A stretch of 52,802 nt of DNA from positions 1 to 52,802 of the forward strand of contig JABJHO010000051.1 in the NCBI GenBank assembly GCA_018661775.1. Direction: 5' to 3'. A program made the position numbers and the translations under genes. The notes beneath the pieces were generated by a model. The model made no database searches. It was not told the origin of the DNA and worked only from the letters and a program-made list of their open reading frames with translations. Positions 1,501 through 37,488 of the stretch are shown here, in pieces (the first letter of the stretch is position 1; each line of letters opens with the position of its first letter). This DNA is from Candidatus Magasanikiibacteriota bacterium. Its GTDB lineage: Bacteria > Patescibacteriota > Patescibacteriia > Magasanikbacterales > UBA922.

Positions 1501-1509
1501 ATTATTTTT

Positions 1510-2634: not shown

Positions 2635-2637
2635 GAT

Positions 2638-5500: not shown

Positions 5501-5502
5501 AC

Positions 5503-6999: not shown

Positions 7000-7003
7000 A
7001 TTG

Positions 7004-8761: not shown

Positions 8762-8762
8762 A

Positions 8763-10220: not shown

Positions 10221-10322
10221 ATACTTGTTTTGGAAGTATAAATAAGGTAATATTAACTTATCAGTAATATAATTTTATCCTTTTTTTAGTAAATTGTCCA
10301 GTCTTAATTAAGTATAATTGTT

Positions 10323-11465: not shown

Positions 11466-11547
11466 TGGCTACAGAACCTCTTTTTAGGTTTGCATTTTTA
11501 TGTATACATTGCTAATATAAAAGTCATTAAATATATTGATAAAATTT

Positions 11548-14203: not shown

Positions 14204-14212
14204 CTTTGAAAT

Positions 14213-15376: not shown

Positions 15377-15383
15377 TAAAAAT

Positions 15384-15995
15384 ATGATTGTGGTAGTTGA
15401 TTATGGTATGGGGAATTTACACTCTATTGCCAAAGCATTGGAGTGTGTGGGGGGTAATGTTTTGGTTAGTAGTAAAGGTGAGGATATTAAAAAAGCTGAT
15501 AAAATAGTCTTGCCTGGTGTTGGTGCGTTTAGAGATGGAGTTGCCAATTTAAAAAAAAGAGGATTAGATAAAATACTTATTAGTGAGGTTGAAAAGAAAA
15601 AGCCGTTACTTGGAATTTGTTTGGGAATGCAGCTTTTAGCTAATAAAAGCTATGAATTTGGAGAATATGAAGGTCTTAGTTTAATAGATTCAGAAGTAAA
15701 GAAATTTAATGAAAGTATCCAATTAAGGGTCCCTCACATGGGATGGAATAATATCGAAATATTAAAGGATCACGTTTTATTAAAGGGAGTAAAAAATAAT
15801 TCTGATTTTTATTTTGTTCATAGTTATTTTATGGAATGTAAAAATAATGAAGATGTTTTTGCTGAATGTAGTTATGGTAGTAACTTTCCAGTGATTGTGG
15901 CTAAAGACAATATATTTATTACACAATTTCACCCAGAAAAGAGTCAAAAAAATGGTTTAAAAATATTAAAAAATTTTGCTGGTTGGAATATGTAA
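15384..15995 (+). CDS. HisH-like glutamine amidotransferase subunit (WbuY-like)
   Basis: 'VVVDYGMGNLHSIAKAL', catalytic Cys in 'LLGICLGMQLL', and 'FVHSY...QFHPEKS'. Confidence 0.85.
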   Translation: MIVVVDYGMGNLHSIAKALECVGGNVLVSSKGEDIKKADKIVLPGVGAFRDGVANLKKRGLDKILISEVEKKKPLLGICLGMQLLANKSYEFGEYEGLSLIDSEVKKFNESIQLRVPHMGWNNIEILKDHVLLKGVKNNSDFYFVHSYFMECKNNEDVFAECSYGSNFPVIVAKDNIFITQFHPEKSQKNGLKILKNFAGWNM

Positions 15996-15999
15996 ACAT

Positions 16000-16758
16000 A
16001 TGCTTAAAAACAGAGTTATACCAATTCTTTTGCTAAAAGATGGTAGAGCGATAAAAACAATTCAATTTGATAAGTATAGAGATGTTGGTGATCCTGTAAC
16101 AACAGCCAGAATATATAATGCGCAACGAGCTGATGAACTTATGTTTTTGGATATATCTGCAAGCAGCGAAGGAAGGAAGACATTGTGTAATATAGTAAGG
16201 GAGGTTGCTGAGGAATGTTTTATGCCTTTATTGGTTGGTGGAGGTGTTTCAAGTATTGATGATATCAGGTTGCTTTTATGTCAAGGGGCTGATAAAGTAA
16301 TTATAAATACGGCCGCGTATGAAATACCTGGATTTATAAAAAGAGCATCTGAAAAATTTGGATCTTCTACCATTGTTGCTTCAATAGATGTTAGAAAAAA
16401 TAAAGAAAAAATGTACGAGGTTTATGTTCGTAGTGGTAATTACTCAACTGGATTGAATCCTGTTGAGTGGGCAAGGTCCTTGGTAAATGAAGGCGCTGGG
16501 GAAATAGTGATAACTTTAATTGATAGAGAGGGGGTTATGAAAGGCTTAGATATAGATCTTATAAAATCAATTACTGAATCTGTAAATGTTCCGGTAATTG
16601 CTTCGGGTGGTGTTGGTAGTTTAAAAGATTATCAACTAGGTTTTGAGGATGGTGGAGCTCAGGCAGTGGCAGCAGGTAGTATATTTCATTTTACAGACCA
16701 AAATCCAATTATGACACGAAATTATCTTTATAATAATAAGGTTAACATAAGACCATAA
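16000..16758 (+). CDS. HisF-like cyclase/synthase subunit (WbuZ-like)
   Basis: 'RVIPILLLKDGRAIKTIQF...GDPVTTARIYNAQRADELMFLDISAS' and 'VIASGGVGS'. The track starts at TTG 15976; the ATG at 16000, just after the hisH-like stop, is preferred. Confidence 0.85.
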   Translation: MLKNRVIPILLLKDGRAIKTIQFDKYRDVGDPVTTARIYNAQRADELMFLDISASSEGRKTLCNIVREVAEECFMPLLVGGGVSSIDDIRLLLCQGADKVIINTAAYEIPGFIKRASEKFGSSTIVASIDVRKNKEKMYEVYVRSGNYSTGLNPVEWARSLVNEGAGEIVITLIDREGVMKGLDIDLIKSITESVNVPVIASGGVGSLKDYQLGFEDGGAQAVAAGSIFHFTDQNPIMTRNYLYNNKVNIRP

Positions 16759-16769
16759 AAATAAAAAAT

Positions 16770-17849
16770 ATGAATACATTTACAATAAAAACACCAAAAG
16801 GAGAAAGAAAAATCGGTCCAGGGGAGCCGTGTTTTATTATTGCAGAAGTTTCTGCCAACCATAATCAGAAATTTGAGAAGGCCGTTGAGATTATAAAAAA
16901 AACAGCAGAGGCTGGTGCAGATGCAGTAAAGTTTCAAACATACACACCGGATACACTTACTATTGATTGTGATAAGCCGGCCTTTGTTTTTGAGGGAGAT
17001 GAGAATCCTTGGAAAGGGCAAAAGCTTTATGATTTGTACAAGACCGCTTATACACCTTGGGATTGGCTGCCAAAGCTTAAAGAAGAAGCAGAAAAAGTTG
17101 GGTTAGTATTTTTTTCTACAGATTACGACATAACTGCTGTCGATTTTATGGAAGAAATGGGTGTTGAATTACACAAAATTGGTTCTTACGAGGTTACACA
17201 TATACCATTATTAAAACGGGTTGCTGAGACAGGAAAGCCAGTAGTCCTATCAATCGGTTATGCATCTTTAGAAGAGGCAACTTTAGCTATATATACTCTA
17301 AAAGAAAATGGGACGAAAGATTTGGTAGTTATGCATTGTACTACAACATATACAGAGAATCCTGAGATGGATACGATGAATTTACATAATATCCAAGATA
17401 TATCAAAACGTTTTGACGTTATTTCTGGATTTTCTGAAAATGCTGGTGGGGTTGATAGTACTGTGCAGGCCGTATTGGCTGGAGCACGAGTAATAGAAAA
17501 GCATGTTATAGATACAAAAGAAGAGTCAAGTCCTGATTCAAAATTTTCAATTGATACAAATGAGCTTGCTGAGTTAGTTAAAAAAGTTAGAGAAGCAGAA
17601 GTGTCACTTGGAAAAGTAAACTATGGGCCAGCGAATGAAAAGGAAGTGTATAACATGAAGCATATGAGGAAATCTCTATTTATTGTTGAAGATGTGAGAG
17701 CAGGAGATGTTTTTACAAAAGAGAATCTTCGGGTTATCCGTCCCGGTATTGGTCTTTCTCCAAAACATATGGATGAAATTTTGGGAAAAAAAGCTTCTAG
17801 TGATGTTGAAAGGGGAGAGGCGATGACTTGGGATTTTGTTAAGAGATAG
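16770..17849 (+). CDS. pseI: NeuB-family nonulosonate synthase, PseI type, with SAF domain
   Basis: 'CFIIAEVSANHNQKFEKAVEIIKKTAEAGADAVKFQTYTPDTLT', plus a C-terminal SAF-like segment 'GDVFTKENLRVIRPGIGL'. Confidence 0.8.
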   Translation: MNTFTIKTPKGERKIGPGEPCFIIAEVSANHNQKFEKAVEIIKKTAEAGADAVKFQTYTPDTLTIDCDKPAFVFEGDENPWKGQKLYDLYKTAYTPWDWLPKLKEEAEKVGLVFFSTDYDITAVDFMEEMGVELHKIGSYEVTHIPLLKRVAETGKPVVLSIGYASLEEATLAIYTLKENGTKDLVVMHCTTTYTENPEMDTMNLHNIQDISKRFDVISGFSENAGGVDSTVQAVLAGARVIEKHVIDTKEESSPDSKFSIDTNELAELVKKVREAEVSLGKVNYGPANEKEVYNMKHMRKSLFIVEDVRAGDVFTKENLRVIRPGIGLSPKHMDEILGKKASSDVERGEAMTWDFVKR

Positions 17850-18125
17850 GTTGATTTACTTGTGTTGAAGCGATGTTTATGATGAAGGTTTTATCAATTC
17901 TGAAAGATCATTAAGCACTTCAGAAAATGATTTTATACAAATTAAACCAAAAGAACATACTTTTTTTATTACCTTTGAAGAAGAGGGGTCACCATTAGAT
18001 ATAAAAAATATAGAAATAAGGAATGCTTTTTCTGATGAGAAAATTTTACATACTACTAGAAGTCTTGATTATTCAGCAAGCCTTTGATGTCTGAAAGATT
18101 GAAAATATTTTAATTATTTTTTATT

Positions 18126-18884
18126 ATGATTAAGTACGGATTAAAATTGTGGTCAAATAATACAACCTGGTTTGAAGAAGCTGTGTCTTTGTATAAGAAG
18201 GGTGCTTATGATTTTATAGAGATCTATAGTAACAGTACAATTCCACACGATTACGCTGCCTTAGAAAAGATTAGACATCTACCTGTGTTCGGTACTCATA
18301 TTGGTCATTTAGATAAGGCAGGGTTTCATAAGTTTTTTTTGACTGACGATCAGTTTGAAGCTTGGAAGATGACTACTGACATCGCAGATTTTTTTGATGT
18401 AAAGCATATTATTGTTCATCCGGCCATTACCCATACAGCGGAAACATTTTGGGAAAATTTGGCTAAACTAAATGACGAGAGAATTTTGGTGGAAAATATG
18501 CCTGTGAATAGTCCATTTGGCGATCCAGATAGGGAATTTGGAACTAAGCTTGAAGACATTGGACATATTCGAGAAAAAAAAGAGATGTGCCTTGATGTAG
18601 AAAAAGCAGTGAAAGCATCTATTTATCATAAAGTACCTTATAAAGAATTTTTGAAAAAAGCAGTAGAAATTATGAAACCAAGCTACGTTCATATTTCTGG
18701 TGGGAATATTACAGACCCAATTGATCAGCATACAGATTTATGGGAAGCAGAATTTGATGTTGCTTGGGTTAGAGATTTACTTGAAAATCAAGAACAAGAT
18801 ATTTACCTTGTTTTTGAAACACCAAAGAACGGACAAGATTTGCAGAATGATTTAAAAAATATGGAGTATTTTAAAACTGTATGA
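18126..18884 (+). CDS. Xylose-isomerase-like TIM-barrel protein (sugar-phosphate isomerase/epimerase family?)
   Basis: 252 aa. The spaced motifs 'HIIVHPA', 'LVENMP', 'CLDVEKA' and 'YVHISGG' resemble the AP_endonuc_2/TIM-barrel family. Weak assignment. Confidence 0.4.
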   Translation: MIKYGLKLWSNNTTWFEEAVSLYKKGAYDFIEIYSNSTIPHDYAALEKIRHLPVFGTHIGHLDKAGFHKFFLTDDQFEAWKMTTDIADFFDVKHIIVHPAITHTAETFWENLAKLNDERILVENMPVNSPFGDPDREFGTKLEDIGHIREKKEMCLDVEKAVKASIYHKVPYKEFLKKAVEIMKPSYVHISGGNITDPIDQHTDLWEAEFDVAWVRDLLENQEQDIYLVFETPKNGQDLQNDLKNMEYFKTV

Positions 18885-19528
18885 TTATTACACTTTTGAT
18901 GGATAATCCTAAAAGTTGGTTTTATCCATTTGCTGAAAATTTAAAGGAAAAATTAGGTGGACTAGGTCACGAAGTTGAACTCGTTCATACTACAGACGAC
19001 ATAAAAGATGGAGAGCTAGCGTTTTTTTTGAGTTGTGAGAAAATTATAAAGCAACCAATTAGAGATAAAAATAAGCACAATCTTGTTGTACACTCTAGCC
19101 CCCTGCCTGCTGGGAAAGGTTGGTCTCCGATGACATGGACAATACTAGCTGGAGAAAATGTTATAACAAGTACGCTATTTGAAGCAGTAGACGCCGTGGA
19201 TGCTGGAGTTATATACATACAAAATTCAATTACCTTTGAGGGTGGTGAATTACTTCCAGAATTACATGCTGCCCAGGGGCAAGCAATTGTAGATATTATT
19301 ATAGAATTCTTATCAGCTTATCCTGAGGTGATAGAACGAGGAGAAGAACAAGTTAGCGAAGAAAGTTTTTATGAAAGACGACGTCCAGAGGACAGTAAAT
19401 TAGACCTAAATAAAACAATTGCTGATCAGTTTAATCTATTGCGAGTTGTAGATAATGAAAAATATCCAGCATTTTTTAATTATAAAGGTAGTAAATATAT
19501 TTTGAAAATCTATAAAGATAACAATTGA
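18881..19528 (+). CDS. Formyltransferase-family protein (Fmt N-domain-like)
   Basis: 'NLVVHSSPLPAGKGWSPMTWTILAGE...VDAVDAGVIY' parallels the 'HxSLLPxxRG...D.G' core of formyltransferases, with Lys in place of Arg. ATGA overlap with the upstream gene. Confidence 0.5.
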   Translation: MIITLLMDNPKSWFYPFAENLKEKLGGLGHEVELVHTTDDIKDGELAFFLSCEKIIKQPIRDKNKHNLVVHSSPLPAGKGWSPMTWTILAGENVITSTLFEAVDAVDAGVIYIQNSITFEGGELLPELHAAQGQAIVDIIIEFLSAYPEVIERGEEQVSEESFYERRRPEDSKLDLNKTIADQFNLLRVVDNEKYPAFFNYKGSKYILKIYKDNN

Positions 19529-19531
19529 GTT

Positions 19532-20617
19532 ATGCCATTGTTTAATGCCGACAATTTTTCAAATTCAGTTATTAGTTATAATGATGTTGATTGTGATAAA
19601 AATTTATTCAACAAGATTTTGAATAATTATTTTAGCGAATATAATATTAAGGGTGTAAGCCAGGTAAATCGCTCAGAGATATATTCAGAAAATTATAAGG
19701 TTATTTTGCAAATTGATGGAAATGATAAAAATATTTTATTGAGAAAATATAATTCTTTAGAAGAAAGTCAAATTAAGTTTTATCTGTTGTTTTTAAAAAA
19801 TTTACAACAAAAAGGTGTGCCTGTTGTAGATGTTGTGAAGACAAAAAATGATTTATTTTATGTTAATGTAGGTGGTTCTCAGTATGCGGTATTTGACTTT
19901 GTTGAGTCAGATCATTTTAAGGCTAGTGAGGAAGCTTTTATTTCAGTTGCAAGGTCGGTAGCGAAAATGCATAAAGCTTTTTCGGGTGTTGATACTGAAA
20001 TTATTAAAAAGATTGATGAATTAAGTCAAAATGGTGAGGCATATTTTAATAAAATTAAATTTTACTCAATAAAAGATTTTAATGATATAGAAAAAATTAT
20101 TAATAATAAAAAAAATCTTTCTATAGAAGATAAGTGTGTATTAGACAAATTACCTCTTTTTATAGAAACAGTTGGGTTAATTGAAAAAGAAAGTATTAAT
20201 TTAGGAAAATTAAATAAAGGTTTAATACATTCTGATCTACACCCACATAATTTATTATTAGATGGTGAGTCTGTAAAAGCAATAATTGATTTTGATGGAA
20301 TGAGGGTTAGTCAGGTGGCTCGTGATGTGGCGTTTGCAATTTATCGTTTAGGTAGGCAATTTTTTGCAAATGGTGTTTTATCAGTAGATAAGGATAAAGG
20401 TAATGATTTGGTAAAACTATTCGTTGGTGAGTATGAAAAAATAAATTTAATTAGTAAAGAAGAGAAGCGATTAATGCCATTGTTAGTTAAGGATGAGTTT
20501 ATTAGAAAGATATTATTTGTATTGAATGGGGTGTATAAAGAGGATAATCACACTTGGGCAAAAGATTTGCCTAAGTTTCTTGTATCTATTGGTGAGATAA
20601 ATTATTTTTGGAATTAG
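19532..20617 (+). CDS. APH/choline-kinase-family small-molecule kinase
   Basis: Brenner motif 'LIHSDLHPHNLLLD' followed by 'IIDFDGM'. Confidence 0.65.
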   Translation: MPLFNADNFSNSVISYNDVDCDKNLFNKILNNYFSEYNIKGVSQVNRSEIYSENYKVILQIDGNDKNILLRKYNSLEESQIKFYLLFLKNLQQKGVPVVDVVKTKNDLFYVNVGGSQYAVFDFVESDHFKASEEAFISVARSVAKMHKAFSGVDTEIIKKIDELSQNGEAYFNKIKFYSIKDFNDIEKIINNKKNLSIEDKCVLDKLPLFIETVGLIEKESINLGKLNKGLIHSDLHPHNLLLDGESVKAIIDFDGMRVSQVARDVAFAIYRLGRQFFANGVLSVDKDKGNDLVKLFVGEYEKINLISKEEKRLMPLLVKDEFIRKILFVLNGVYKEDNHTWAKDLPKFLVSIGEINYFWN

Positions 20618-20629
20618 TTGTAACATATT

Positions 20630-21901
20630 ATGAATAAAAAAGATTCTTTAAAAGAAATATTAAATTACACACCTTCTGGTGCGCAGACATTAAGTAAAAA
20701 TCCTACCCAGTATGTGGTTGGTGTAACACCTTTAACTATTGATAGGGCTGAGGGTGTGTATCTTTGGGATGCTGAAGGTAATAAATATTTAGATACTTTA
20801 CTCGCTTTGGGTCCAATGATTTTTGGTTATGCAAATAAAAGGATTAATAAAGTTGTTATAGATCAGATCGATAAGGGCGCGATATATTCTTTGCCATCTA
20901 AGTATGAATTACAATTAGCTAAACTGTTAAAGAGTGTTGTGCCTTGTGCAGAAATGAGTAAATTTGTTTTAGATGGAAATGATGCTACAACTGGAGCTGT
21001 GCGTTTGGCTAGGCATATTACTGGGCAAGATCATGTTGCTAAATGTGGTTATCATGGTTACCAAGACTGGAGTATCTGTACAAAGGAAGGTAGAAATAAT
21101 GGAGTTCCTGAAATAACAAAAAGTCTAACGCATGATTTTAAGTACAATGATATTGATTCATTGGAGAAAATTTTTAAAGAATATCCAGGTAAAATATCTG
21201 CGGTAATATTGGAGCCTGTTTCAGCTGAAAAACCAAAGGATAATTTTTTACAAAGAGTAAAAGAGGTTGCCCATAAAAATGGTGCATTATTAATCTTTGA
21301 TGAAATGGTTACCGGCTTTCGATGGTCTCTTGGTGGGGCGCAAGAATATTTTGATGTTATTCCTGATTTAGCTTGTTTTAGCAAAGCTATTTCAGGTGGT
21401 TATCCAATAGCGATAATTTCAGGAAAAAAAGAATACATGTCTCGTATGGACGAGGTCTTTGTTTCCACTACTTTCTCAGGTTCGGTACTTGGTCTTGTGG
21501 CTGCAATTGAAACAATAAATATGATGAAAGAGTTTGGTGATGTGCAAAAATATATGCATGATCTTGGTGATTATTTTATAAACGAAGGTAATAAAATAGT
21601 AGAAGAAAATAATTTACCAGTTGAATTTACAGGATATGGCCCACACCCTGTAATGGTAATAAAAATTGATGATGAATATGAAAATAGATTATTTAAGTCC
21701 TTTATATATCAAGAAATGAATAAGGCTGGTATACTTTTTAGCAGTTCTTTAATGATTGGGTATGCACACAAGCAAAAGCATATTGATTTTATTTTAGAAA
21801 AATTTAGAGAAGTTTGCGTCAGTCTTTCTGCAATAAAAGATTTGAAAGATATTCAAGATTTACTTGATGGTGACGTGGTTGCGCCTCGTACAGTAAGATA
21901 A
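20630..21901 (+). CDS. Class-III PLP aminotransferase (glutamate-1-semialdehyde aminomutase-like)
   Basis: 'ALLIFDEMVTGFRWSLGGAQ', and 'CFSKAISGGYPIA' with a candidate PLP lysine. Confidence 0.8.
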   Translation: MNKKDSLKEILNYTPSGAQTLSKNPTQYVVGVTPLTIDRAEGVYLWDAEGNKYLDTLLALGPMIFGYANKRINKVVIDQIDKGAIYSLPSKYELQLAKLLKSVVPCAEMSKFVLDGNDATTGAVRLARHITGQDHVAKCGYHGYQDWSICTKEGRNNGVPEITKSLTHDFKYNDIDSLEKIFKEYPGKISAVILEPVSAEKPKDNFLQRVKEVAHKNGALLIFDEMVTGFRWSLGGAQEYFDVIPDLACFSKAISGGYPIAIISGKKEYMSRMDEVFVSTTFSGSVLGLVAAIETINMMKEFGDVQKYMHDLGDYFINEGNKIVEENNLPVEFTGYGPHPVMVIKIDDEYENRLFKSFIYQEMNKAGILFSSSLMIGYAHKQKHIDFILEKFREVCVSLSAIKDLKDIQDLLDGDVVAPRTVR

Positions 21902-21903
21902 TT

Positions 21904-22527
21904 ATGTATATGAATAATATAAAAACAATAATCTTTGATTGGGGTGGTGTTATGTGTAGTGAGGGTGAACCTTTTTCTAGTTTAGCTCTACAGAAGAAGG
22001 TTGGTAAAAAACCAGATGAAATGGTGTTGGATGTTTTAGATATATATAATGATTTTTATCGTGGGGTTTATAATGATAAAGAATTTTGGAATTTAGTGAA
22101 AAAACACTATAGATTGGAGGAAGATGATAGTATAAGTAATAGTGAATTAAACCAAGCATATCTGAAATCATATTTTTTTTGGCCAGAAATGTTAGATTTT
22201 GTAAAAAGCTTGAAAGGTAAATATAAAGTTGGTTTATTGTCTGATATGAATAAAATTATGCGTGATCATATACAAAAAAAACATACTTTGTCCGAAGTTT
22301 TTCAAGAGCAAATGTATAGTTGTGATAAAAATATTAATCTAATCAAAAATGACGGACCAAAAATATTTGAATTAATGATGAAAAAAATGGGTGAGGATAG
22401 TCCGCAATCTTGTTTATTTATTGATAATTCACAAAATAAAATAAATGTAGCAAAAAAATTTGGTATGCACACACTTTTATTTAAAGATGTTGATAGTTTT
22501 TTAGAAGATACTAAAGATTATTTGTAG
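21904..22527 (+). CDS. HAD-superfamily hydrolase/phosphatase
   Basis: Motif I variant 'IIFDWGGVM', 'VGLLSDMN', and 'CLFIDNSQNKINVAKKFGM' (motif IV region). Confidence 0.65.
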   Translation: MYMNNIKTIIFDWGGVMCSEGEPFSSLALQKKVGKKPDEMVLDVLDIYNDFYRGVYNDKEFWNLVKKHYRLEEDDSISNSELNQAYLKSYFFWPEMLDFVKSLKGKYKVGLLSDMNKIMRDHIQKKHTLSEVFQEQMYSCDKNINLIKNDGPKIFELMMKKMGEDSPQSCLFIDNSQNKINVAKKFGMHTLLFKDVDSFLEDTKDYL

Positions 22528-22528
22528 T

Positions 22529-23521
22529 ATGAAAAATATATTAGTTATAGGTGGGGGTTCTATAGGAAAACGCCATATGCGTAATCTTTTAAGTATTGGT
22601 GAGAAAAATGTTTTTGTAGTTGAGCCAAACGAGAAAAGAGCTTTGGAAGAGATTGAAAAGAAACACAATATAAAAACATTTCGCTCTTTAGAGGAGGCTT
22701 ATGATGAGATAAATTTTGACATAGCTTTTGTGTGTAGTCCATCAGTTTTTCATATTGAAAATGCAATGTTTTGTGCAGAAAAGGGGTCTGACTTATTTAT
22801 TGAAAAGCCTTTGTCCCATAATTTGGAGAAGGTTGATGAGTTGTTAAAAATAGTAAAAGATAAGAAGTTAATTACTATGATAGGTAGTAATTGGAAATTT
22901 TATCCCTTATTTAAAAAGATGAAAGAGTTAATAGATGGTAAAGCAATTGGTAAAATTTTTTCAGCTAGGTGTCAATTTGGGCAATACTTACCAGGTTGGC
23001 ATCCATGGGAAGATTATAAAAATGGTTATAGTGCTAATAAAAAATTAGGTGGTGGGGTTTTACTTGACTCTCATGAATTTGATTACCTCACATGGTTTTT
23101 AGGTGGGGTAAAAAAACTAGCGTGTTTTGCAGACAAAGTAAGTGATTTAGAAATTAATACTGAAGATGTTGCAGAAACCATCTTACAGTTTGAAAGTGGT
23201 GTGATAGCAGAAATACATGTGGATTATTTACAGAGATTTTATCAAAGAAATTTTGAGTTTTTTGGTGAGTTGGGTACAATTAAGTGGGATACGAATGAAA
23301 AGAGTGTGGAATTGTTGGTTATTAATAAAGAAAAAGAGGTCTTTAATTTAAATAAAGAGTATGATATAAATGATATGTATATTGATGAAGTAAGGCATTT
23401 TTTAGATAGTGTGCAGAAACGTCAGGATAGTTGTACAAATATTGAGCGTGGTGCGGAGGTTTTGAGATTGATATGTGCCTCAAAGGAGTCCTCGTTGAAT
23501 AACTCTGTATTTATTAATTAA
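22529..23521 (+). CDS. Gfo/Idh/MocA-family NAD(P) oxidoreductase
   Basis: Rossmann N-terminus 'ILVIGGGSIGKRHMRNL' and 'LFIEKPLSHNLEK' (EKP motif). Confidence 0.75.
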   Translation: MKNILVIGGGSIGKRHMRNLLSIGEKNVFVVEPNEKRALEEIEKKHNIKTFRSLEEAYDEINFDIAFVCSPSVFHIENAMFCAEKGSDLFIEKPLSHNLEKVDELLKIVKDKKLITMIGSNWKFYPLFKKMKELIDGKAIGKIFSARCQFGQYLPGWHPWEDYKNGYSANKKLGGGVLLDSHEFDYLTWFLGGVKKLACFADKVSDLEINTEDVAETILQFESGVIAEIHVDYLQRFYQRNFEFFGELGTIKWDTNEKSVELLVINKEKEVFNLNKEYDINDMYIDEVRHFLDSVQKRQDSCTNIERGAEVLRLICASKESSLNNSVFIN

Positions 23522-23526
23522 ATTAT

Positions 23527-24522
23527 ATGTTAATACAAAAAAATAAAGTAACCATAGTTTGTGAAATGTCACAAACTTATGAAGGAAAATTTGATGTTGC
23601 AAGTAAATTAGTAGGCGCGGCAATAGACGCAAAAGCTGATGCTATTAAGTTTCAAGTGTTCAAAGCAGATGAGCTTGGTACAAAGGATTATAAACATTAT
23701 GATCTTTTTACTTCACTAGAATTTACACCAGAGCAATGGGGTGATCTTATAAAACAAGCGCAAGACGGTGGAATATTGGCTTTTGCTGATGTGTTTGGGT
23801 TGGAGAGCGCTCAAATGCTTATTGAAAAAAATATTGATGGATTTAAAATCCACCCGACCGATATAAAAACCCCGCCCCTACTGGAATTTTTGGCAAAGTC
23901 TGGTAAACCATTGATGCTTTCAGTTGGTGGTAGTCATAGGGAGGAAATTGAAAAAGCAATTTCTATATTGAATGAAAATGGTGCAAAAGAAGTGGTGTTG
24001 ATGCATGGCTTCCAGAGTTACCCTACATTAGTGGAGCATACAAATTTAAATAAAATGAGTCTTTTTAAAGATGATTTTGGCTTACCTGTTGGATTTGCTG
24101 ATCATATAGATGGTGATCATTCTATGAGGTATGACTTATGTGCGATGGCATTGGCTATGGGTGCAAGTGTGTTAGAGAAACATATTACTCTAGATAGAAA
24201 ATTGAAAATGGAAGATTATGAGTCAGCGCTTGATCCTAACGACTTTAAGGATTTTGTTGAAAGAATGCGTGAACTTGAGGGCGCGCTTGGTGAAAAAAGC
24301 CTTAAATTAACAGAGCCAGAAATTGTTTATCGTAAAAGCACTAAAAAACACATTGTAGCTGCTGTTGATTTAACCGCTGGTACAGTTTTGAGAGAGGAAA
24401 ATATTTTTATGAAACGCACTGTGGAAGAGTATGAATTTCTAGACAGAGAGCAGATTGTTGGAAAAACTCTGATATCAGAATTAAAAAAAGATCAAGTTGT
24501 TAGGTTGGATAATCTTAAGTAA
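23527..24522 (+). CDS. Divergent NeuB-family (sialic-acid-synthase-like) enzyme with SAF domain
   Basis: NeuB-like 'AIDAKADAIKFQVF', 'GFKIHPTD', 'MLSVGGS', 'VLMHGFQSYPT', 'GFADHIDG' and 'VLEKHITLDR'. The usual N-terminal 'AE(I/V)(G/S)xNHxG' is replaced by 'VCEMSQTYEGK'. Confidence 0.7.
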   Translation: MLIQKNKVTIVCEMSQTYEGKFDVASKLVGAAIDAKADAIKFQVFKADELGTKDYKHYDLFTSLEFTPEQWGDLIKQAQDGGILAFADVFGLESAQMLIEKNIDGFKIHPTDIKTPPLLEFLAKSGKPLMLSVGGSHREEIEKAISILNENGAKEVVLMHGFQSYPTLVEHTNLNKMSLFKDDFGLPVGFADHIDGDHSMRYDLCAMALAMGASVLEKHITLDRKLKMEDYESALDPNDFKDFVERMRELEGALGEKSLKLTEPEIVYRKSTKKHIVAAVDLTAGTVLREENIFMKRTVEEYEFLDREQIVGKTLISELKKDQVVRLDNLK

Positions 24523-24523
24523 T

Positions 24524-25270
24524 ATGCGCTTAGTTTGTACCTTGGCCTGCCGTGTTCAGTCAACACGTCTGTATGGTAAGCCATTACAGTTATTGAGTAT
24601 TGAAGAAAGTCTAAGTATTATAGACTATTTATTGGACCATTTAGGGAGTGTCACTCAAATTGATGAAACTGTTTTAGCTATAAGTGATGGTAAAGAGAAT
24701 ACTCCCTTTATTCGCCTAGCTCAAAGAAGGGGGTTGCGGTATGTCATTGGTGATGAAAGGGATGTTTTGGGAAGATTAATTGCTGCCGGAAAAAAGGGTG
24801 AGGCAGATATTGTTTTTCGTGTAACAAGTGAATGCCCATTTATTTATATGGACGGTTTGAAAGAGGCTTTGCAAAAACATTTGGATAACAATGCATCTCT
24901 TACCGTGATTGAAGGTCTGCCAGAGGGTGCTTATTTTGAATTGATTAATTTAGAAGATTTAGAGGCTGAACATGAGAAAGGTGAAGATAGACACAGGAGT
25001 GAGTTGTGTACTTTGTATATAAATGAAAATCCAGATAAGTTTAAAATTCAGACACTACCTGTTCCAGACAAATCTTTAAAGCGTCCAGATATACGTATCA
25101 CAGTTGATTACCCTGAGGATTTGATAGTGGCTCGTGAATTGTATGAGGCTTTAAAGAAAGAAGGGCAATTTGTTGGTATAAAAGAAATTATTGAATATAT
25201 GGATGCACACCCTAAATTAAATGAAGTTAATAATTGGATTGATGCAGGAAAGGGGAGGATTTGGGATTAG
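24524..25270 (+). CDS. SpsF-type cytidylyltransferase (CMP-sugar synthetase family)
   Basis: 'RLVCTLACRVQSTRLYGKPLQLL' resembles the SpsF/acylneuraminate cytidylyltransferase N-terminus. The track starts at TTG 24497; the ATG at 24524, 2 nt after the upstream stop, is preferred. Confidence 0.7.
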   Translation: MRLVCTLACRVQSTRLYGKPLQLLSIEESLSIIDYLLDHLGSVTQIDETVLAISDGKENTPFIRLAQRRGLRYVIGDERDVLGRLIAAGKKGEADIVFRVTSECPFIYMDGLKEALQKHLDNNASLTVIEGLPEGAYFELINLEDLEAEHEKGEDRHRSELCTLYINENPDKFKIQTLPVPDKSLKRPDIRITVDYPEDLIVARELYEALKKEGQFVGIKEIIEYMDAHPKLNEVNNWIDAGKGRIWD

Positions 25271-25327: not shown

Positions 25328-27055
25328 ATGAATAAAAAGGACAGGAAGAGAAGGGGGGAAATAAAAAGCTTACTTGTTTTTGCTTTTAGTTTTACAATTT
25401 TTATTTTTGTGACCGGTTTGAGTCTGTCTTATGTCAAGGGGGTAGATAAGTGGATTATAATTTCAAAGATACCACATTCTTTTAGAGTTGTTGGAAGAAA
25501 GGGGTTAAGATTTTTTCAGGATTTGCCATATATAAAGTATGAATTTCAAAAACATGGATTGCCTGTATATAATTTAAAAGTTGACGAAAAAGACCTTAGA
25601 TTTTTGCGTTCAAATATTCCTGATGCGTCTGAGCAAATGACAGATGAGTATAAGGTTTATGTTCCTGCAACATTTGAGTATGGTAGTAAAGAATATGGCG
25701 TGCGTATAAGAAATAGAGGTGTATCAAAGAATCACTGGCTTTGGCCAAAAAAATCAATTAGAGTTCAGTTTAATGATGATCTCTTTCAAGGAATAAAAAA
25801 TTTGAATCTAATTACCCCGACTGATAGGCTTTATTTGGTTGAAGAATTCAATCACTATAGGGCAAAGAGATTGGGGCTTTTTGTGCCTAGAAGTTTTTTT
25901 GTTGTTGTAACTACTAATAGTAAAGATTCAGCAATATACTGGGCAGTTGAACATTATGAAAAAGAAATGTTGGAGACTGCACAAATGAGTTCTGATGCAA
26001 ATTTTTATGGTGAGGGTGATGCGTATATACAGGAAACACTGTATGACTTTTTGTATAGCTCTGTGTTTAACTGGAAAAAGTATAACAATGACGTGAGATT
26101 TAGTGAAGATAATTATGCAGATATTGATTTGTTAATTAATTTGATTAACAGTGAAAATGATACAAGGTTTGCAAATAATATATTTTCTGTAGTAGATGAA
26201 GATAGTTTTTATGCTTGGAGTGTCCACAACGCTTTGGTTTTTGGGCAGCACCAGGATTGGGGTCATAATATTAGATTATATTTTGACTCATCAGTGGGTA
26301 AGTTTAAATTTGTCCCCATAGACGTTGGAATGAAAGATGTTGATAAGGACTTAAGTGGTGAAGATTTTTTTGAGGAGCATACTAATCATCTGATGAATAA
26401 AATTTTATCATTTCCAAGGTTTATGCGGGAGAGAAATAAAAGATTGTGGAATTATCTGAGTGATGATAATAATTTAAAAGAAGAGTTGGAATATTATGAT
26501 CATTTGTATGAGAGAACTAAGGTCGCTTTTTATCAAGATAAAATTAGAAGGATGAATAACCAGCATATTGATAGGCAAGTTTCAGAATATAGACGGAGAA
26601 TAGTTAACAATACAGAGAAATTAAGAAAATTATTTACAGAGGTTGAAATTAGACATTCTTTTAAGCGGGTTGGTGAAGATGTTAAAACAAAAATATACAC
26701 AAAAACTCTTTCCCCGATTATACTTAAAAGTGCGGTGGTTTCAGGTGTGAAAAGTGTTGGTGGTGATATTGCAATTATTGATGAAAATAATAAAGTTGTT
26801 TGTAGGGATGTTGATTTGGTAGAAGAGGGTAAGATCGTTTTAGAATGTGATCCCAACATGATTTTTCCAGATATTTCACAAGTGCAATTAGAGGCCCCAG
26901 ATAATGTGAGTTCAATAGCTGATAAATATTTTAAAGCTAATAAAGTTAATGAAAAAAGAACTAGTTACAGAATAATAGGTGCCAAGAGTGAAAAAATTAG
27001 ATTAGAATTTATAAATTTATATACTAACGAAGTGTCTAGTCTTGATATTAACTAA
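25328..27055 (+). CDS. CotH-family kinase-fold protein, N-terminal membrane anchor
   Basis: Basic N-terminus then one hydrophobic helix ('IKSLLVFAFSFTIFIFVTGLSL'). CotH-like regions: 'YVPATFEYGSKEYGVRIRNRGVSKNHWLWPKKSIRVQF' and 'HQDWGHNIRLYFDSSVGKFKFVPID'. Confidence 0.7.
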   Translation: MNKKDRKRRGEIKSLLVFAFSFTIFIFVTGLSLSYVKGVDKWIIISKIPHSFRVVGRKGLRFFQDLPYIKYEFQKHGLPVYNLKVDEKDLRFLRSNIPDASEQMTDEYKVYVPATFEYGSKEYGVRIRNRGVSKNHWLWPKKSIRVQFNDDLFQGIKNLNLITPTDRLYLVEEFNHYRAKRLGLFVPRSFFVVVTTNSKDSAIYWAVEHYEKEMLETAQMSSDANFYGEGDAYIQETLYDFLYSSVFNWKKYNNDVRFSEDNYADIDLLINLINSENDTRFANNIFSVVDEDSFYAWSVHNALVFGQHQDWGHNIRLYFDSSVGKFKFVPIDVGMKDVDKDLSGEDFFEEHTNHLMNKILSFPRFMRERNKRLWNYLSDDNNLKEELEYYDHLYERTKVAFYQDKIRRMNNQHIDRQVSEYRRRIVNNTEKLRKLFTEVEIRHSFKRVGEDVKTKIYTKTLSPIILKSAVVSGVKSVGGDIAIIDENNKVVCRDVDLVEEGKIVLECDPNMIFPDISQVQLEAPDNVSSIADKYFKANKVNEKRTSYRIIGAKSEKIRLEFINLYTNEVSSLDIN

Positions 27056-27095
27056 TATTGACCTGATTACATTTTTAGTATAATATACTTTTACT

Positions 27096-29984
27096 ATGAA
27101 AATTAAGGAAAAAATGAAAAAATATACAAAACTAGGTCATTTAAGTATTTTTTTTAGTTTGGCCGCTTTGTTTATTGGTAGTATTTTTTTCTATTTTTTT
27201 GCAAATAACTCTGGCAAAAAGACAGTCCAAGAAAAATTACCTAAGATTGTGGCAGAGTGTTTTGTAAGTTTAAGAAATAAAATTCAAGATTTAAAATATA
27301 TATCCCGTGATTTTTCCGAATCAAATTTACCGGTGTATGAGTTAAATATTTCTAAAGAAAATTTAAAAAAATTAGAAGACAATTTACCTAACCTAGAGGC
27401 GCGTAGACTGGAGGATGATTATGCTCTTGGGGTGGATGAGAGGATGGGGGATGGTAGTAGAATTTATGTGCCAGCAGAATTTATATTTGATAATAAAATA
27501 TATGAAGTGGAGGTGCGTTATCGTGGGAATAGTGCGCCGCATTGGTCAGAAGAAAAAAAATCAATGAGAATTAGATTTCCAAAAGATGATTTGTTTTTTG
27601 GAAAGCGTGATATAAATTTTATAATCCCTTTAGACAGGTATTATCTGGCAGAGGAATTTAATAATTATAGGGCTAGAAAAATGGGGTTAGTTGTGCCAGA
27701 TAGTAAGTTTGTTGGTATAAAAATAAACGGAAAGCAAGAGGCATTGTACTGGGAAGTTGAGCATTTTTCAAAGGAATTTTTAGAAACCCATAATTTAAGT
27801 GGAGACATGGATTTGTATGGTGAGGGTGATACATTTCAACAAAAAATATACACAGATATAAATTATTGGCAAAAATACGTTGAAGACCCTCTAAAAGCTA
27901 AAAATAATTACACTCCTTTGGAAATTTATTTATCATTTTTAAATGAGGCACCGGAAGAAGTATTTAATAAATATATTTTTGATTTGATTGATAAAGATAA
28001 TTTCTATACTTGGACAATTCATAATTTGTTATCAGGAAGTTTACATCAAGATTATTCTCATAATATAAGAATGGTATTTGATAAAAGTGTTGGGAAATTT
28101 AAAATATTTCCATGGGATTTGTATGTTTATGATTATAGTGTAAAAGTTTTGGACATAGACTCGGCTCTAGAGGCTACTAGAAATCCACTTGTAGGTCGTG
28201 TACTGAGTAATCCTGAGTTTATGCATGAGAGGAATCAGATGATGTGGGAGTATGTAGAAAATAAAGATAATTTAAAGGAGGGTCTAAAAACGTATGATGA
28301 ACTTTTTGTGTCTACCCAGAAGACTTTTTATAATGATCCAATAAGAAATCGTTCTTATAAATTTTTTGAAAATGAAGTTGGAAGGACGAGATCAAATATT
28401 GAAAAGAATTTTAATAGAATTAGAAAATTATTTACTAATGGGGAGGCAAGTTTTGTATTCTCAAACAAATTACATAATAATGAATTAGAATTATCTTTAT
28501 CTAATTTTAATTCAGTTTCCCCGGCATATTTAAGTGAGATTGAATTAACTTTTAAAGAAGAGACCTTAGTATTATTTGATGTATTATTTGATGGTAAAAA
28601 AGTTTGTGATGCTAATGAGGCAGAAATTGATGAGGATAAAAATAGGATAAAATTAAAATGTGATAGGCTAGATATTTTTCCAAGATTGACAAAATATGTT
28701 CCAGATATAAATGATATAGAATATTACGCTAAAGAAATATTTGTTGTGCAGAAGAATAAAAATCTTTTTCTCTTAATTCCAAGAGAACAAATTTTGTTGA
28801 ATGATGTGGAAAAAATTAAAATTGAAGTGCGAAATTCAAATACAGATAAAAAGTTTGATGAAGTGAGTGGGGTGTTTGTTGATAATACAGAATTTACTAA
28901 TTTTTATGATATTTCAAAAACACCACAAGAATTTACATCAGAAAATAAAAGATTTTATTTAAATGGAAATGAAATAGTGTTACCAGCTGGACTGCATATA
29001 TTTTCTGATAATTTAGTAATTCCACGTAATACAAAATTAACTATATTACCTGGAGCAACTATTAATTTAATTAATAATGCTTCTTTTGTTTCATATAGTC
29101 CGGTGATTGCCAAAGGTAATCCTAGTGACAATATTATCGTTCGTGGAGAGGGTGACGGAGTGGGTGAGAATTTTGCCGTGTTAGATAATATTGGCTTGAG
29201 TGAATTTGAATATGTGGAATTTTCTGGAGGTGGGGAGTCAACGGTAAACGGGGCTTTCTTTTCTGGCATGCTTGCAATTCATCATGCAGACAGTATTATT
29301 AAATATTGTAAATTTGAAAATGCCGCAGGGGATGACGCATTAAATATAAAATATGCTTCAAGTACTGTTGCACATAATTCATTTGTCGCAAATTCAGCTG
29401 ACGCAATTGATTATGATTTTTCTAATGGTGTAATTGAGTATAATAAGTTTATTGATAACGGTAATGATAGCATTGACACGTCAGGTTCGCCGGTTTTAAT
29501 ACAATTTAATGAAATTATAAATTCCGGCGATAAGTGTATTAGTTCAGGCGAAAAATCTACTTCAGTAATATTTAATAATATTTTACATGGCTGCTATATT
29601 GGTATTGAGGTGAAAGATTTATCAGAACCGACTATTATTAATAACGTGATTGTTCATAACGATATAGGTATAAATGAATATCAGAAAAAAGAGATATTCG
29701 GTGGCGGAAAAGGAAGGGTATATAACACGATAATTTGGGATAATAAGGAAAGTATTATGCTAGATAAGGTATCAACCATTGAAGTCTATAACAGTGATGT
29801 AGAGAGTGGTTATGACGGAAAAGGTAATTTTGACAAGGAACCTGTTTTTCTTGAAGGCTTTACAAATAGTGAAAAAGACGCTATCATAAAGTTCAAGACA
29901 GGTGGTAATGGCGATATTTTGAAGGAAGTGTTGGGGGTAGGTTTGGATGAAGTTCCTGTTGGTCTGGTATATGGTTTTAAATAA
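27096..29984 (+). CDS. CotH-family kinase-fold protein fused to a C-terminal right-handed beta-helix domain, membrane anchored
   Basis: Paralogue of the upstream gene ('YVPAEFIFDNKIYEVEVRYRGNSAPHWSEEKKSMRIRF', 'HQDYSHNIRMVFDKSVGKFKIFPWDL'). The C-terminal ~330 aa show periodic 'N.F..N..D(A/S)ID' / 'N.I..N' repeats typical of PbH1 parallel beta-helices. Confidence 0.7.
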   Translation: MKIKEKMKKYTKLGHLSIFFSLAALFIGSIFFYFFANNSGKKTVQEKLPKIVAECFVSLRNKIQDLKYISRDFSESNLPVYELNISKENLKKLEDNLPNLEARRLEDDYALGVDERMGDGSRIYVPAEFIFDNKIYEVEVRYRGNSAPHWSEEKKSMRIRFPKDDLFFGKRDINFIIPLDRYYLAEEFNNYRARKMGLVVPDSKFVGIKINGKQEALYWEVEHFSKEFLETHNLSGDMDLYGEGDTFQQKIYTDINYWQKYVEDPLKAKNNYTPLEIYLSFLNEAPEEVFNKYIFDLIDKDNFYTWTIHNLLSGSLHQDYSHNIRMVFDKSVGKFKIFPWDLYVYDYSVKVLDIDSALEATRNPLVGRVLSNPEFMHERNQMMWEYVENKDNLKEGLKTYDELFVSTQKTFYNDPIRNRSYKFFENEVGRTRSNIEKNFNRIRKLFTNGEASFVFSNKLHNNELELSLSNFNSVSPAYLSEIELTFKEETLVLFDVLFDGKKVCDANEAEIDEDKNRIKLKCDRLDIFPRLTKYVPDINDIEYYAKEIFVVQKNKNLFLLIPREQILLNDVEKIKIEVRNSNTDKKFDEVSGVFVDNTEFTNFYDISKTPQEFTSENKRFYLNGNEIVLPAGLHIFSDNLVIPRNTKLTILPGATINLINNASFVSYSPVIAKGNPSDNIIVRGEGDGVGENFAVLDNIGLSEFEYVEFSGGGESTVNGAFFSGMLAIHHADSIIKYCKFENAAGDDALNIKYASSTVAHNSFVANSADAIDYDFSNGVIEYNKFIDNGNDSIDTSGSPVLIQFNEIINSGDKCISSGEKSTSVIFNNILHGCYIGIEVKDLSEPTIINNVIVHNDIGINEYQKKEIFGGGKGRVYNTIIWDNKESIMLDKVSTIEVYNSDVESGYDGKGNFDKEPVFLEGFTNSEKDAIIKFKTGGNGDILKEVLGVGLDEVPVGLVYGFK

Positions 29985-30059
29985 GTTATATGAGTGCACT
30001 CAAACTGCATTCATTCAGGAATAATTTAGGGTAAGTTCTAACCATTTATTCATTTGTTT

Positions 30060-30881
30060 ATGAATCCGAAATTACATTTTCAGAGATTTGAATTTAAGTA
30101 TTTAATTACCACAGATTTAGAATTGGAAATTAAGAAAAGAATTGCACCTTACATTAAAAAAGACCCATTTGTTGCAAAAAATAAAAATGGAATGTATGAA
30201 GTGATAAGTTTGTATTATGATAGTCCAGGATTCTATTATTATAGACAAAAAATAGATGGAGTGTTAAAAAGAAAAAAAGTACGGTTAAGGGTGTATAGGA
30301 ATAATAGTGAATTCATCAAATATGCATTTTTTGAAATAAAAAGAAGGTATGACGCTGTTATTTTAAAAGATAGGTTTTTGATCAGTATAGAAGATTATGA
30401 TAAGCTTATCAAAAATGATGATTTTCACAGTACTGTTGCAATACGTGATCAGAATAGAAAAAATATTATTGAAGAATTTGAGTGGGAACAGCATTTGCGA
30501 TCGATTGGTCCTAAGGTTTTAGTTAATTATGACCGTGAACCGTATCTAGGTATATATAATGAAAATTTTAGAATAACGTTTGATAAAAATATAAAAGCAA
30601 TTCAAAATGATAATTTGTTCTATAAAGGAAATGATTTTGAAGATATCTCTGGAAATCATACTGTAATGGAAGTGAAGTTTAATGGTTCTTTACCACATTA
30701 TGTGAGTGAAATTATAAAAGAGTTTGATTTACAGAGAATTTCATATTCAAAATATTGCCATGCAATTGAATCTACAGGATGTATATCAGCCTATGATTTT
30801 CCAAAAACAAAAGGTATTGTGGATGCAAAGGAGAGTATATTAGAAAGAAGTAGAGTGTCAAATGGAAATTTTGGGTTTTAG
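30060..30881 (+). CDS. VTC-domain (polyphosphate polymerase / triphosphate-tunnel fold) protein
   Basis: 'FQRFEFKYLI', 'YEVISLYYDSPGFYYY', 'KRKKVRLRVY', 'FFEIKRR' and 'HTVMEVKF' match the alternating basic/acidic beta-strand pattern of VTC/CYTH tunnels. No hydrophobic helix. ATG 30060 preferred over TTG 30054. Confidence 0.75.
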   Translation: MNPKLHFQRFEFKYLITTDLELEIKKRIAPYIKKDPFVAKNKNGMYEVISLYYDSPGFYYYRQKIDGVLKRKKVRLRVYRNNSEFIKYAFFEIKRRYDAVILKDRFLISIEDYDKLIKNDDFHSTVAIRDQNRKNIIEEFEWEQHLRSIGPKVLVNYDREPYLGIYNENFRITFDKNIKAIQNDNLFYKGNDFEDISGNHTVMEVKFNGSLPHYVSEIIKEFDLQRISYSKYCHAIESTGCISAYDFPKTKGIVDAKESILERSRVSNGNFGF

Positions 30882-30916
30882 TATAATAGATTAATATTTA
30901 ATTAATAACATAGTAT

Positions 30917-31594
30917 ATGACAGAATTGTTTTCAGGAGGATTGATATCATATTCAATACCACAAATTGTATTGAATATAGTAGTGACATTTGTATTGTCA
31001 TTTGTTATAGCTCTTGTGTATAAAAAGACACACAAAGGTTTATCTTATTCTCAGTCGTTTGTTTTCACTCTAGTGTTAATGAGTGTGATTGTGTCTGTTG
31101 TTATGATGATAATTGGTAATAGTCTTGCGCGTGCCTTTGGTCTTTTGGGGGCTTTTTCCATTATTAGATTTCGTACTGCAGTGAAAGATACAAAAGATAC
31201 TGGGTATATCTTTTTTGCACTTGCAATTGGTATGGCCGTGGGAACCGGTAGTTATAATATAGCAGTGGTTGGAACCATATTAATCTTGTTGGTGATATTG
31301 ATTTTAGATAAAATTAATTTTGGTTCAATGAGAAAGCATGAGTATCTATTATCTTTTGTCGTTAATCATGATGAAGGTGCGGGGAACACTTTTGAGGGGG
31401 TATTTAAAAAATATTTAAAAAATATTATGCTTTTAAATATTAACTCAAAACGTGATGGTAAAGCAGCAGAAATGACATATCATGCAAGTTTTGTTGATGA
31501 GGACAAGAAAGAAGAATTTGTAAGAGAGTTATCCGGAATGAGTGGAGTGGAAAAAGTTCACCTTATTACTTCAAAGGAGGATGTAGAATATTAA
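30917..31594 (+). CDS. DUF4956-family multi-pass membrane protein
   Basis: Several hydrophobic helices, the conserved-looking 'ARAFGLLGAFSIIRFRTAVKDTKDTGYIFFALAIGMAVGTG', and a soluble ~90-aa C-terminal domain. Confidence 0.7.
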   Translation: MTELFSGGLISYSIPQIVLNIVVTFVLSFVIALVYKKTHKGLSYSQSFVFTLVLMSVIVSVVMMIIGNSLARAFGLLGAFSIIRFRTAVKDTKDTGYIFFALAIGMAVGTGSYNIAVVGTILILLVILILDKINFGSMRKHEYLLSFVVNHDEGAGNTFEGVFKKYLKNIMLLNINSKRDGKAAEMTYHASFVDEDKKEEFVRELSGMSGVEKVHLITSKEDVEY

Positions 31595-31609
31595 AAATAA
31601 TGTAATAAA

Positions 31610-31640
31610 AAATCTCAGATTAAACTGAGATTTTTTTATT
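31610..31640 (+). terminator. Rho-independent terminator ending the CotH/VTC/DUF4956 block
   Basis: Perfect 8-bp stem aatctcag / ctgagatt (31611-31618 and 31625-31632), 6-nt loop, then a T7 run. Confidence 0.7.
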
Positions 31641-35903: not shown

Positions 35904-35957
35904 ACTGTCCTCTTTTCTGTTTTTGAAAGAACGAAAAACGTGCGTTTGCACCCTTAT

Positions 35958-37479: not shown

Positions 37480-37488
37480 AAATGTATC

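Follow-up and report, generated by a model that had tools for sequence, protein, structure and literature searches.

A four-gene block encoding two CotH-fold proteins, a VTC-domain protein and a DUF4956 membrane protein ends a surface-glycan locus in a 52,802-nucleotide contig (JABJHO010000051.1, assembly GCA_018661775.1; hereafter the window) from a Candidatus Magasanikiibacteriota bacterium, a member of the candidate phyla radiation (CPR). In the preferred reading, to which we assign a probability of about 40%, the block is the terminal cassette of that locus and one instance of a widespread CotH + VTC + DUF4956 module in which polyphosphate (polyP) export feeds extracytoplasmic CotH enzymes. 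The linkage of the three families is already published and common; the window adds a phylum and a glycan context that are new for it. A preliminary description of this DNA knew of no function shown for the VTC/DUF4956 pair or for its linkage to CotH; taken as a statement that the linkage is unreported, this is wrong, given its description beside Pel loci in 2020 (PMC7112168) and the mutants published in 2025 (PMC12345266).

The module bears on how enzymes outside the bacterial membrane obtain a phosphoryl donor and on whether bacteria use a yeast-type polyP polymerase besides PPK1 and PPK2. It is spread through exopolysaccharide loci of streptococci, clostridia, bifidobacteria and actinomycetes and through much of the CPR, and one genetic study ties it to the output of a biofilm polysaccharide. 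Knowing its activity would annotate thousands of genes. The CPR instance shows that the cassette is not Pel-specific and exposes a clade in which the catalytic Asp of the kinase fold is replaced, which bears on CotH chemistry.

All four open reading frames (ORFs) lie on the plus strand with intergenic gaps of 35-70 nt and match exactly the coordinates first given for them; a hairpin with a 12-bp stem and a T-run follows at 31607-31636, in agreement with the strong terminator described after the block. The features are as follows.

25328..27055, plus strand: CotH1, 575 aa, a predicted type-II anchored CotH-fold protein (Pfam CotH 3e-16 over aa 127-431)
25370..25426, plus strand: predicted signal-anchor helix of CotH1, aa 15-33 (Kyte-Doolittle 19-mer 2.37; preceded by 7 K/R)
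27096..29984, plus strand: CotH2, 962 aa, with a predicted type-II anchor, CotH domain, beta-sandwich and right-handed beta-helix
27147..27203, plus strand: predicted signal-anchor helix of CotH2, aa 18-36 (Kyte-Doolittle 2.25; N-terminus net +5)
28953..29795, plus strand: parallel beta-helix of CotH2, about aa 620-900, a putative polysaccharide-binding or -processing module (Pfam, AlphaFold2, Foldseek)
30054..30881, plus strand: VTC-domain protein, 275 aa, a soluble homologue of the Vtc4 polyP-polymerase tunnel domain
30917..31594, plus strand: DUF4956 or MgtC-like membrane protein, 225 aa, with five transmembrane (TM) helices and a C-terminal ACT-like domain
31343..31570, plus strand: ACT-like domain of DUF4956, aa 143-218, predicted to be cytoplasmic by the positive-inside rule
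31607..31636, plus strand: intrinsic-terminator-like hairpin closing the block, a 12-pair stem AAAAAATCTCAG/CTGAGATTTTTT followed by a T-run

The VTC reading frame opens with TTG at 30054, and the ATG at 30060 is the probable true start because a homologue with 83% identity is 273 aa long. In the public annotation CotH2 is called at 834 aa (100% identity, 87% coverage), which leaves out 128 residues of the ORF, and it would lose the membrane anchor if the missing residues are N-terminal. The long form is favoured because the N-terminal region is conserved among homologues. Each of the four family assignments in the preliminary description is borne out by a score above the Pfam gathering threshold.

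The VTC protein matches Pfam VTC at 3e-41 (141.8 bits against a cut-off of 23), with no match to CYTH. A search of the PDB with the single sequence gave no match, and a profile built from 40 homologues matches the catalytic domain of yeast Vtc4 (3g3q) at an E value of 4e-14. In Vtc4, K200, R264, R266, K281, R361, K458, S457 and Y359 are essential for polyP synthesis, E426 is a ligand of Mn2+, and K458 is the one residue that is missing from the inactive Vtc2/3, according to a cryo-EM study of the VTC complex (10.1101/2023.01.27.525886). The window protein has all nine: K15, R77, R79, K96 and Y159 correspond to Vtc4 K200, R264, R266, K281 and Y359, while R161, E206, S232 and K233 correspond to R361, E426, S457 and K458. 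Loss of the tunnel residues, which the preliminary description named as grounds for refutation, is thus clearly not observed. Among the 40 homologues these positions are invariant or at least 90% conserved (K96 is near-invariant), and K233, the equivalent of the Vtc4-specific K458, is invariant. The 275-residue chain has no TM segment, in keeping with its first description as soluble, and no other domain; a fused or associated Vtc1-type TM pore and an SPX domain are absent from it, and the DUF4956 fold has no match to the VTC pore chains. Judged by sequence, this is a cytoplasmic homologue of the Vtc4 tunnel domain that keeps every catalytic residue. Stand-alone VTC proteins form a large family, with 14,599 representatives of 50%-identity clusters at E <= 1e-3 and 8,159 at E <= 1e-10.

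DUF4956 was described from the outset as polytopic, and hydropathy and an AlphaFold2 model agree. The protein matches Pfam DUF4956 (PF16316) at 4e-20 (72.7 bits against a cut-off of 30.6), and its matches to Pfam MgtC (3e-5) and NCBIfam PRK09977 both fall below the curated cut-offs, for which reason it is treated as a distinct family. The model (pLDDT 77.6) places five TM helices at aa 14-38, 46-66, 70-86, 92-109 and 113-132, followed by a beta-alpha-beta-beta-alpha-beta domain at aa 143-218. Foldseek matched this C-terminal domain alone, to ACT domains that include the C-domain of MgtC (2lqj); for the TM bundle it returned nothing similar in the PDB and no VTC pore chain. A Vtc1-like pore homologue was considered and rejected because the Foldseek matches are restricted to the ACT domain. 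The most conserved segments of the family, YKKTHKGLSYSQ and RFRTAVKDTKD, are both basic, and the positive-inside rule predicts an N-out, C-in topology with both segments and the ACT domain on the cytoplasmic face. From the model, DUF4956 is best described as an MgtC-like protein and not a homologue of the yeast translocation channel. It shares five TM helices and a C-terminal ACT-like domain with the MgtC/SapB/YhiD proteins, yet it is always paired with VTC, whereas MgtC is not.

The two CotH proteins are tandem paralogues, as first described, with 34% mutual identity. They score 60.2 bits (CotH1) and 73.7 bits (CotH2) against Pfam CotH (PF08757; cut-off 23.8), and CotH2 additionally matches Beta_helix (2e-7) and NosD (2e-4) beside CotH itself (2e-20). 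A profile of CPR CotHs matches B. cereus CotH (5jd9) at an E value of 7e-21. The AlphaFold2 model of CotH2 (pLDDT 82.7), built on a shallow alignment for which the homologue search gave 12 proteins, aligns with 5jda over 394 columns (Foldseek E 9e-15, TMt 0.80). Beyond the CotH domain, CotH2 continues into a beta-sandwich (aa 450-595) and the right-handed beta-helix, and the C-terminal region of CotH1 aligns with the same beta-sandwich. The beta-helix has weak Foldseek matches to GH87 glucanase, AlgG epimerase, PL6 lyases, NosD and phage tailspikes, which in the modelled structure suggests a polysaccharide target.

Both CotH proteins begin with an N-terminus of net charge +5 followed by a single hydrophobic 19-mer, as the preliminary description had it, and are therefore predicted to be membrane-anchored with the CotH domain facing outward. 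Anchor and topology analysis upholds this extracytoplasmic prediction for the window and for its relatives: an N-terminal membrane anchor is found on 48 of 49 full-length CPR CotHs, 43 of which fit the positive-inside rule.

The catalytic loop reads HQDWGHN in CotH1 (aa 308-314) and HQDYSHN in CotH2, against FDGFVHN in B. cereus. Loop statistics refer to 47 CPR CotHs linked to VTC, in which the opening His is present in 44 and the closing Asn in 43. In B. subtilis CotH the catalytic residues are reported at second hand to be D228 and D251, with D228Q kinase-dead (PMC7821199). The metal-binding D251 equivalent is kept as D332 in CotH1 (PID, aa 330-332) and D341 in CotH2 (PWD), and in 93% of the CPR clade. 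Three further positions, H136, H308 and K325 in CotH1 (H149, H317 and K334 in CotH2), occur in 93-100% of CPR VTC-linked CotHs and are missing from B. cereus CotH and from the VTC-linked CotHs of Firmicutes and Actinobacteria; one of the three, a His, stands first in the catalytic loop, which in most of the clade has lost the canonical Asp. The idea that the three residues are a polyP adaptation of all VTC-linked CotHs was rejected as a general rule on this distribution, since the Firmicute and Actinobacterial proteins lack them and retain the canonical N-x-D motif. The CPR CotH clade may, on this sequence pattern, use altered chemistry. No paper linking CotH to the CPR was found in the literature searched.

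Synteny was assessed in 52 species-representative GTDB loci, all CPR apart from two contigs labelled archaeal; the scan used the pattern F[QR]RFEFKY, which is specific to the CPR subfamily, so these loci sample no other phyla. Of the 48 loci that extend far enough downstream, 45 have DUF4956 as the next gene after VTC on the same strand, and all 48 have it somewhere in the locus. A median of 10 nt separates the two genes, and 42 of 51 pairs overlap or lie no more than 25 nt apart. CotH is immediately upstream of VTC in 31/49 loci and within 10 kb in 43/49, with a median gap of 2 nt. Recurrent neighbours in the CPR are glycosyltransferases (GT4), sugar epimerases, methyltransferases, DegT aminotransferases, an ABC exporter and polysaccharide deacetylases. 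The closest homologues of the window VTC (83% identity) and DUF4956 (91%) come from Ca. Magasanikbacteria, and their close relatives are essentially all CPR/Patescibacteria. A related genome (L001) has the same block of CotH, CotH-beta-helix, VTC and DUF4956, with a NeuB/CMP-transferase gene before it and genes for UDP-glucose dehydrogenase and epimerase after it. Chance adjacency is excluded because this genome repeats the block and the triad recurs over the 52 loci, and the three families co-occur far beyond chance, against the refuting condition set in the preliminary description.

Beyond the CPR, the VTC-DUF4956 pair is present in 6/6 Firmicute and Actinobacterial records, four of which have CotH. 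The annotated Firmicute CotHs were missed by a CotH profile trained on CPR sequences and were scored with Pfam. The six records are listed below.

Pseudobutyrivibrio (plasmid): CotH-VTC-DUF4956 within an exopolysaccharide cluster
Planococcus (plasmid), L060 8270-12824: VTC-DUF4956-CotH, then a 689-aa protein, a HEAT-repeat protein and a glycosyltransferase
Enterococcus (plasmid): VTC-DUF4956 pair with CotH
Nonomuraea: VTC-DUF4956 pair with CotH
Acetoanaerobium, L063 9516-11072: the pair, then a PLD/cardiolipin-synthase-like gene; no CotH
Paenibacillus, L064 9461-11359: the pair, then a Cthe_2159 beta-helix carbohydrate-binding protein; no CotH

VTC-DUF4956 is thus the core pair, with DUF4956 as the obligate, tightly coupled membrane partner of VTC and CotH as a frequent third partner. 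A second conserved context, found on the Planococcus plasmid and in C. perfringens NELoc-2, runs VTC-DUF4956-CotH, a Pfam-less protein of ~690 aa, a HEAT-repeat protein and a GT2 synthase, and suggests a distinct synthase-dependent exopolysaccharide system. The CPR-type block also occurs on contigs labelled Woesearchaeota/archaeon or 'uncultured Gammaproteobacteria' among GTDB representative metagenome-assembled genomes (L023, L038, L011, L015, L016, L018, L027, L032, L036, L052); these labels could reflect mislabelling, misbinning or cross-domain transfer.

The module was described earlier from Pel loci. CotH, a poly-phosphate polymerase and DUF4956 (with DUF4832) recur in streptococci, clostridia and bifidobacteria as conserved accessory genes directly adjoining pelDEADAFG (Whitfield et al., 2020; 10.1101/768473 = PMC7112168), and the authors propose that CotH regulates Pel by phosphorylation (10.1101/768473 = PMC7112168). 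In S. intermedius, deletion of SIR_1594 (a secreted CotH-FN3 protein) or SIR_1592 (MgtC-type TM plus ACT) reduces Pel and aggregation, and SIR_1593 is named a polyP polymerase (PMC12345266). The triad was not found outside the Pel locus in that study (PMC12345266). It is nonetheless not Pel-specific, because it is present in this window, in 52 CPR loci and on several plasmids. The window block has in common with the Pel accessory set its three Pfam families, encoded side by side in one orientation within a polysaccharide locus, a CotH predicted to be secreted or outward-facing, and a DUF4956 of the MgtC-type TM plus ACT design. It differs in having no pel genes or DUF4832 and stopping at a terminator; neither Pel families nor DUF4832 were found among the 46 of 49 window ORFs of at least 150 aa that were scanned with Pfam, the remaining three being nested inside longer scanned ORFs. 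It lies in a CPR bacterium within a nonulosonic-acid glycan cluster of the Wzx/Wzy type, its CotH is duplicated with one copy fused to a beta-helix rather than FN3, and its catalytic loop has H-Q-D in place of N-x-D. C. perfringens NELoc-2 also has the triad, its DUF4956 gene annotated in error as a 'tubulin/FtsZ GTPase' (PMC2879425). There and on the Planococcus plasmid the triad likewise sits beside a polysaccharide synthase, but CotH follows the VTC-DUF4956 pair and the other partner genes differ.

The window VTC shares with the vacuolar yeast complex (Vtc4/Vtc3 or Vtc2/Vtc1) a homologous catalytic tunnel domain and obligate association with a membrane protein, whereas it lacks SPX and a fused Vtc1-type three-TM domain and is partnered by a separate MgtC-like protein with five TM helices and an ACT domain. 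The window CotHs belong to the same Pfam family and fold as Bacillus CotH (B. cereus 5JD9/5JDA; B. subtilis) and share its conserved RG, KKS, E, N and PWD (D251 equivalent) positions. Bacillus CotH acts in the mother-cell cytoplasm, using ATP, on the coat proteins CotB and CotG, whereas the window CotHs are predicted to be anchored and outward-facing and have glycan-type C-terminal domains, a Gln at the D228-aligned position and the clade-specific H136/H308/K325.

PolyP export feeding ecto-CotH enzymes is a reasonable model for these observations. Each ground for refutation given in the preliminary description was examined, and none overturns the idea. VTC would make polyP from ATP at the membrane, where a DUF4956 oligomer would dock it and pass or gate the polyP chain outward; the ecto-CotH enzymes would then take phosphoryl groups from polyP, or attach polyP itself, so as to add phosphate to the glycan or glycoconjugate of the locus. 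The beta-helix and beta-sandwich domains would hold that glycan or glycoconjugate, and the ACT domain would supply the regulation that SPX domains provide in yeast. The model is favoured because the VTC catalytic set is intact, the synteny is tight, the CotH topology is outward and the glycan context is recurrent, together with the genetics of S. intermedius. A bolder version is considerably more speculative: a VTC-type second bacterial polyP synthase with an MgtC-like five-TM/ACT partner would extrude polyP, and outward CotH-fold enzymes would use polyP and not ATP to (poly)phosphorylate surface glycans, those of the CPR with a remodelled His-containing loop. If true, it would mark the first known case of a phosphoryl-donor supply outside the cytoplasm and of a kinase-fold glycan modifier that depends on polyP, and would reveal phosphate-based surface modification in organisms thought to be energy-poor.

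Several observations weigh against polyP export feeding ecto-CotH enzymes. We know of no CotH enzyme that uses polyP, and no functional or biochemical study of any bacterial VTC-domain protein, nor one showing such a protein to make polyP, was found in the literature searched. In its model DUF4956 is without detectable similarity to Vtc1-type pores, and its five-TM monomer offers no obvious channel. The residue aligned with D228 by HMMER and MAFFT is Gln (Q309 in CotH1, Q318 in CotH2), with an Asp one residue later, and an Asp at the window's position (four before the Asn) is present in 12/47 CPR CotHs. Finally, VTC-DUF4956 occurs without CotH beside a PLD-like or Cthe_2159 gene, which implies a function of the pair independent of CotH. 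The yeast analogy of the preliminary description, with synthesis coupled to translocation, finds no support in homology on the membrane side, as DUF4956 is MgtC-like and has no structural match to Vtc1-type pores. For the proposed CotH kinases, family and fold agree with the proposal, but the catalytic-loop Asp is shifted by one residue here and gone in most CPR relatives. 'Kinase' is for that reason an assumption for the window CotHs, and their kinase competence, as read from sequence, is plausible but not established.

These points leave room for other readings. VTC and the MgtC-like DUF4956 might instead form a cytoplasmic regulatory module that makes or senses polyP or triphosphate on the inner membrane face and tunes phosphate, Mg or ATP homeostasis or the glycan assembly machinery, with CotH as a separate ecto-protein living on leaked ATP or as a regulator acting by protein phosphorylation. 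This is a doubtful but credible alternative: DUF4956 has the MgtC architecture and an ACT ligand-binding domain, MgtC is known for regulating F1Fo ATPase and PhoR, not for transport (cited in PMC12345266), histidine kinases adjoin the pair in the Enterococcus and Acetoanaerobium loci, the pair is found without CotH, and regulation by phosphorylation is what the Pel authors proposed (10.1101/768473). Yet the CotH-VTC junctions are operon-tight (median 2 nt) in an order conserved across phyla, the outward CotH topology leaves no obvious source of ATP, and the beta-helix fusion points to a glycan and not a protein substrate. The loop chemistry invites a different reading, in which CPR-clade CotHs are not phosphotransferases but glycan-binding, glycan-processing or adhesive proteins on a degenerate kinase fold (cf. 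the CotH invasins of Mucorales), with lyase- or epimerase-type chemistry in the beta-helix and polyP merely a surface polyanion or cation store. An Asp at canonical spacing (five before the Asn) survives in 2/47 CPR CotHs and an acidic residue of any kind three to five positions before it in 22/47, the Gln stands where a D-to-Q change kills B. subtilis CotH, the beta-helix resembles AlgG epimerase, PL6 lyases and GH87 glucanase, and in Paenibacillus a beta-helix Cthe_2159 protein replaces CotH beside VTC-DUF4956. The reading is nevertheless unlikely: RG, KKS, N197, Y204, E208, Asn314 and Asp332/341 are shared with B. cereus CotH and highly conserved, which is unusual for a dead fold, both window paralogues retain an Asp adjacent to the canonical position, and Firmicute and Actinobacterial VTC-linked CotHs keep N-x-D. 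Quite improbable is a VTC protein with another triphosphate-tunnel activity, as an inorganic or nucleoside triphosphatase or a cyclase. The triphosphate tunnel superfamily is functionally diverse, and no published activity of a bacterial VTC protein was found in the literature searched, but the match is specific to the VTC family (3e-41, with none to CYTH) and all nine Vtc4 polymerase residues are kept, including the K458 that inactive Vtc2/3 lack.

The locus that the block terminates spans 160-31594 (~31 kb), and its part upstream of the block is given here.

160..25270, no strand assigned: low-GC surface-glycan locus upstream of the block (Pfam scans; GC 0.30-0.36)

Its glycan-assembly genes, by Pfam, encode two PMT-type GT-C glycosyltransferases, GT4 and GT2 enzymes, a methyltransferase, Capsule_synth, a carbamoyltransferase and a Wzx flippase. 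The nonulosonic-acid pathway comprises PseB/DegT/GNAT-like and HisH/HisF-like genes, two NeuB genes and a cytidylyltransferase (CMP-transferase), along with an APH-type kinase, a class-III aminotransferase, a HAD hydrolase and a GFO oxidoreductase. At 15384-24522 this pathway is unusually elaborate, with its two NeuB genes, GFO/IDH/MocA oxidoreductase, HAD phosphatase, APH-type kinase and class-III aminotransferase, and suggests a heavily decorated sugar; its HisH/HisF-like amidotransferase pair is of the type used for acetamidino groups. The low GC (0.30-0.36, against 0.37-0.42 beyond 36 kb) is typical of exchangeable surface-polysaccharide islands.

Past the terminator, a minus-strand ORF of 1321 aa (31986-35951) encodes a domain like the formylglycine-generating enzyme (FGE-sulfatase) together with four Cu-binding repeats of the MopE type. 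At 0.45-0.49, its GC exceeds that of the regions on either side (0.30 and 0.41). It looks like a horizontally acquired insertion because a related Magasanikbacteria locus has a 316-aa gene alone in its place. A chimeric window, considered on account of the GC jump at 32 kb, was rejected, as the related genome L001 shares the genes to either side of it. The remainder, 36000-52802, carries housekeeping genes (FolD, PBP2, RNase Y, Fmt, Def). Three ORFs have no Pfam match, at 14213-15376 (387 aa), 18126-18884 (252 aa) and 51430-52788 (452 aa). Two of these sit within the nonulosonic-acid pathway, and the 252-aa ORF is kept beside a formyltransferase-like gene in the related genome (L001 2195-2956).

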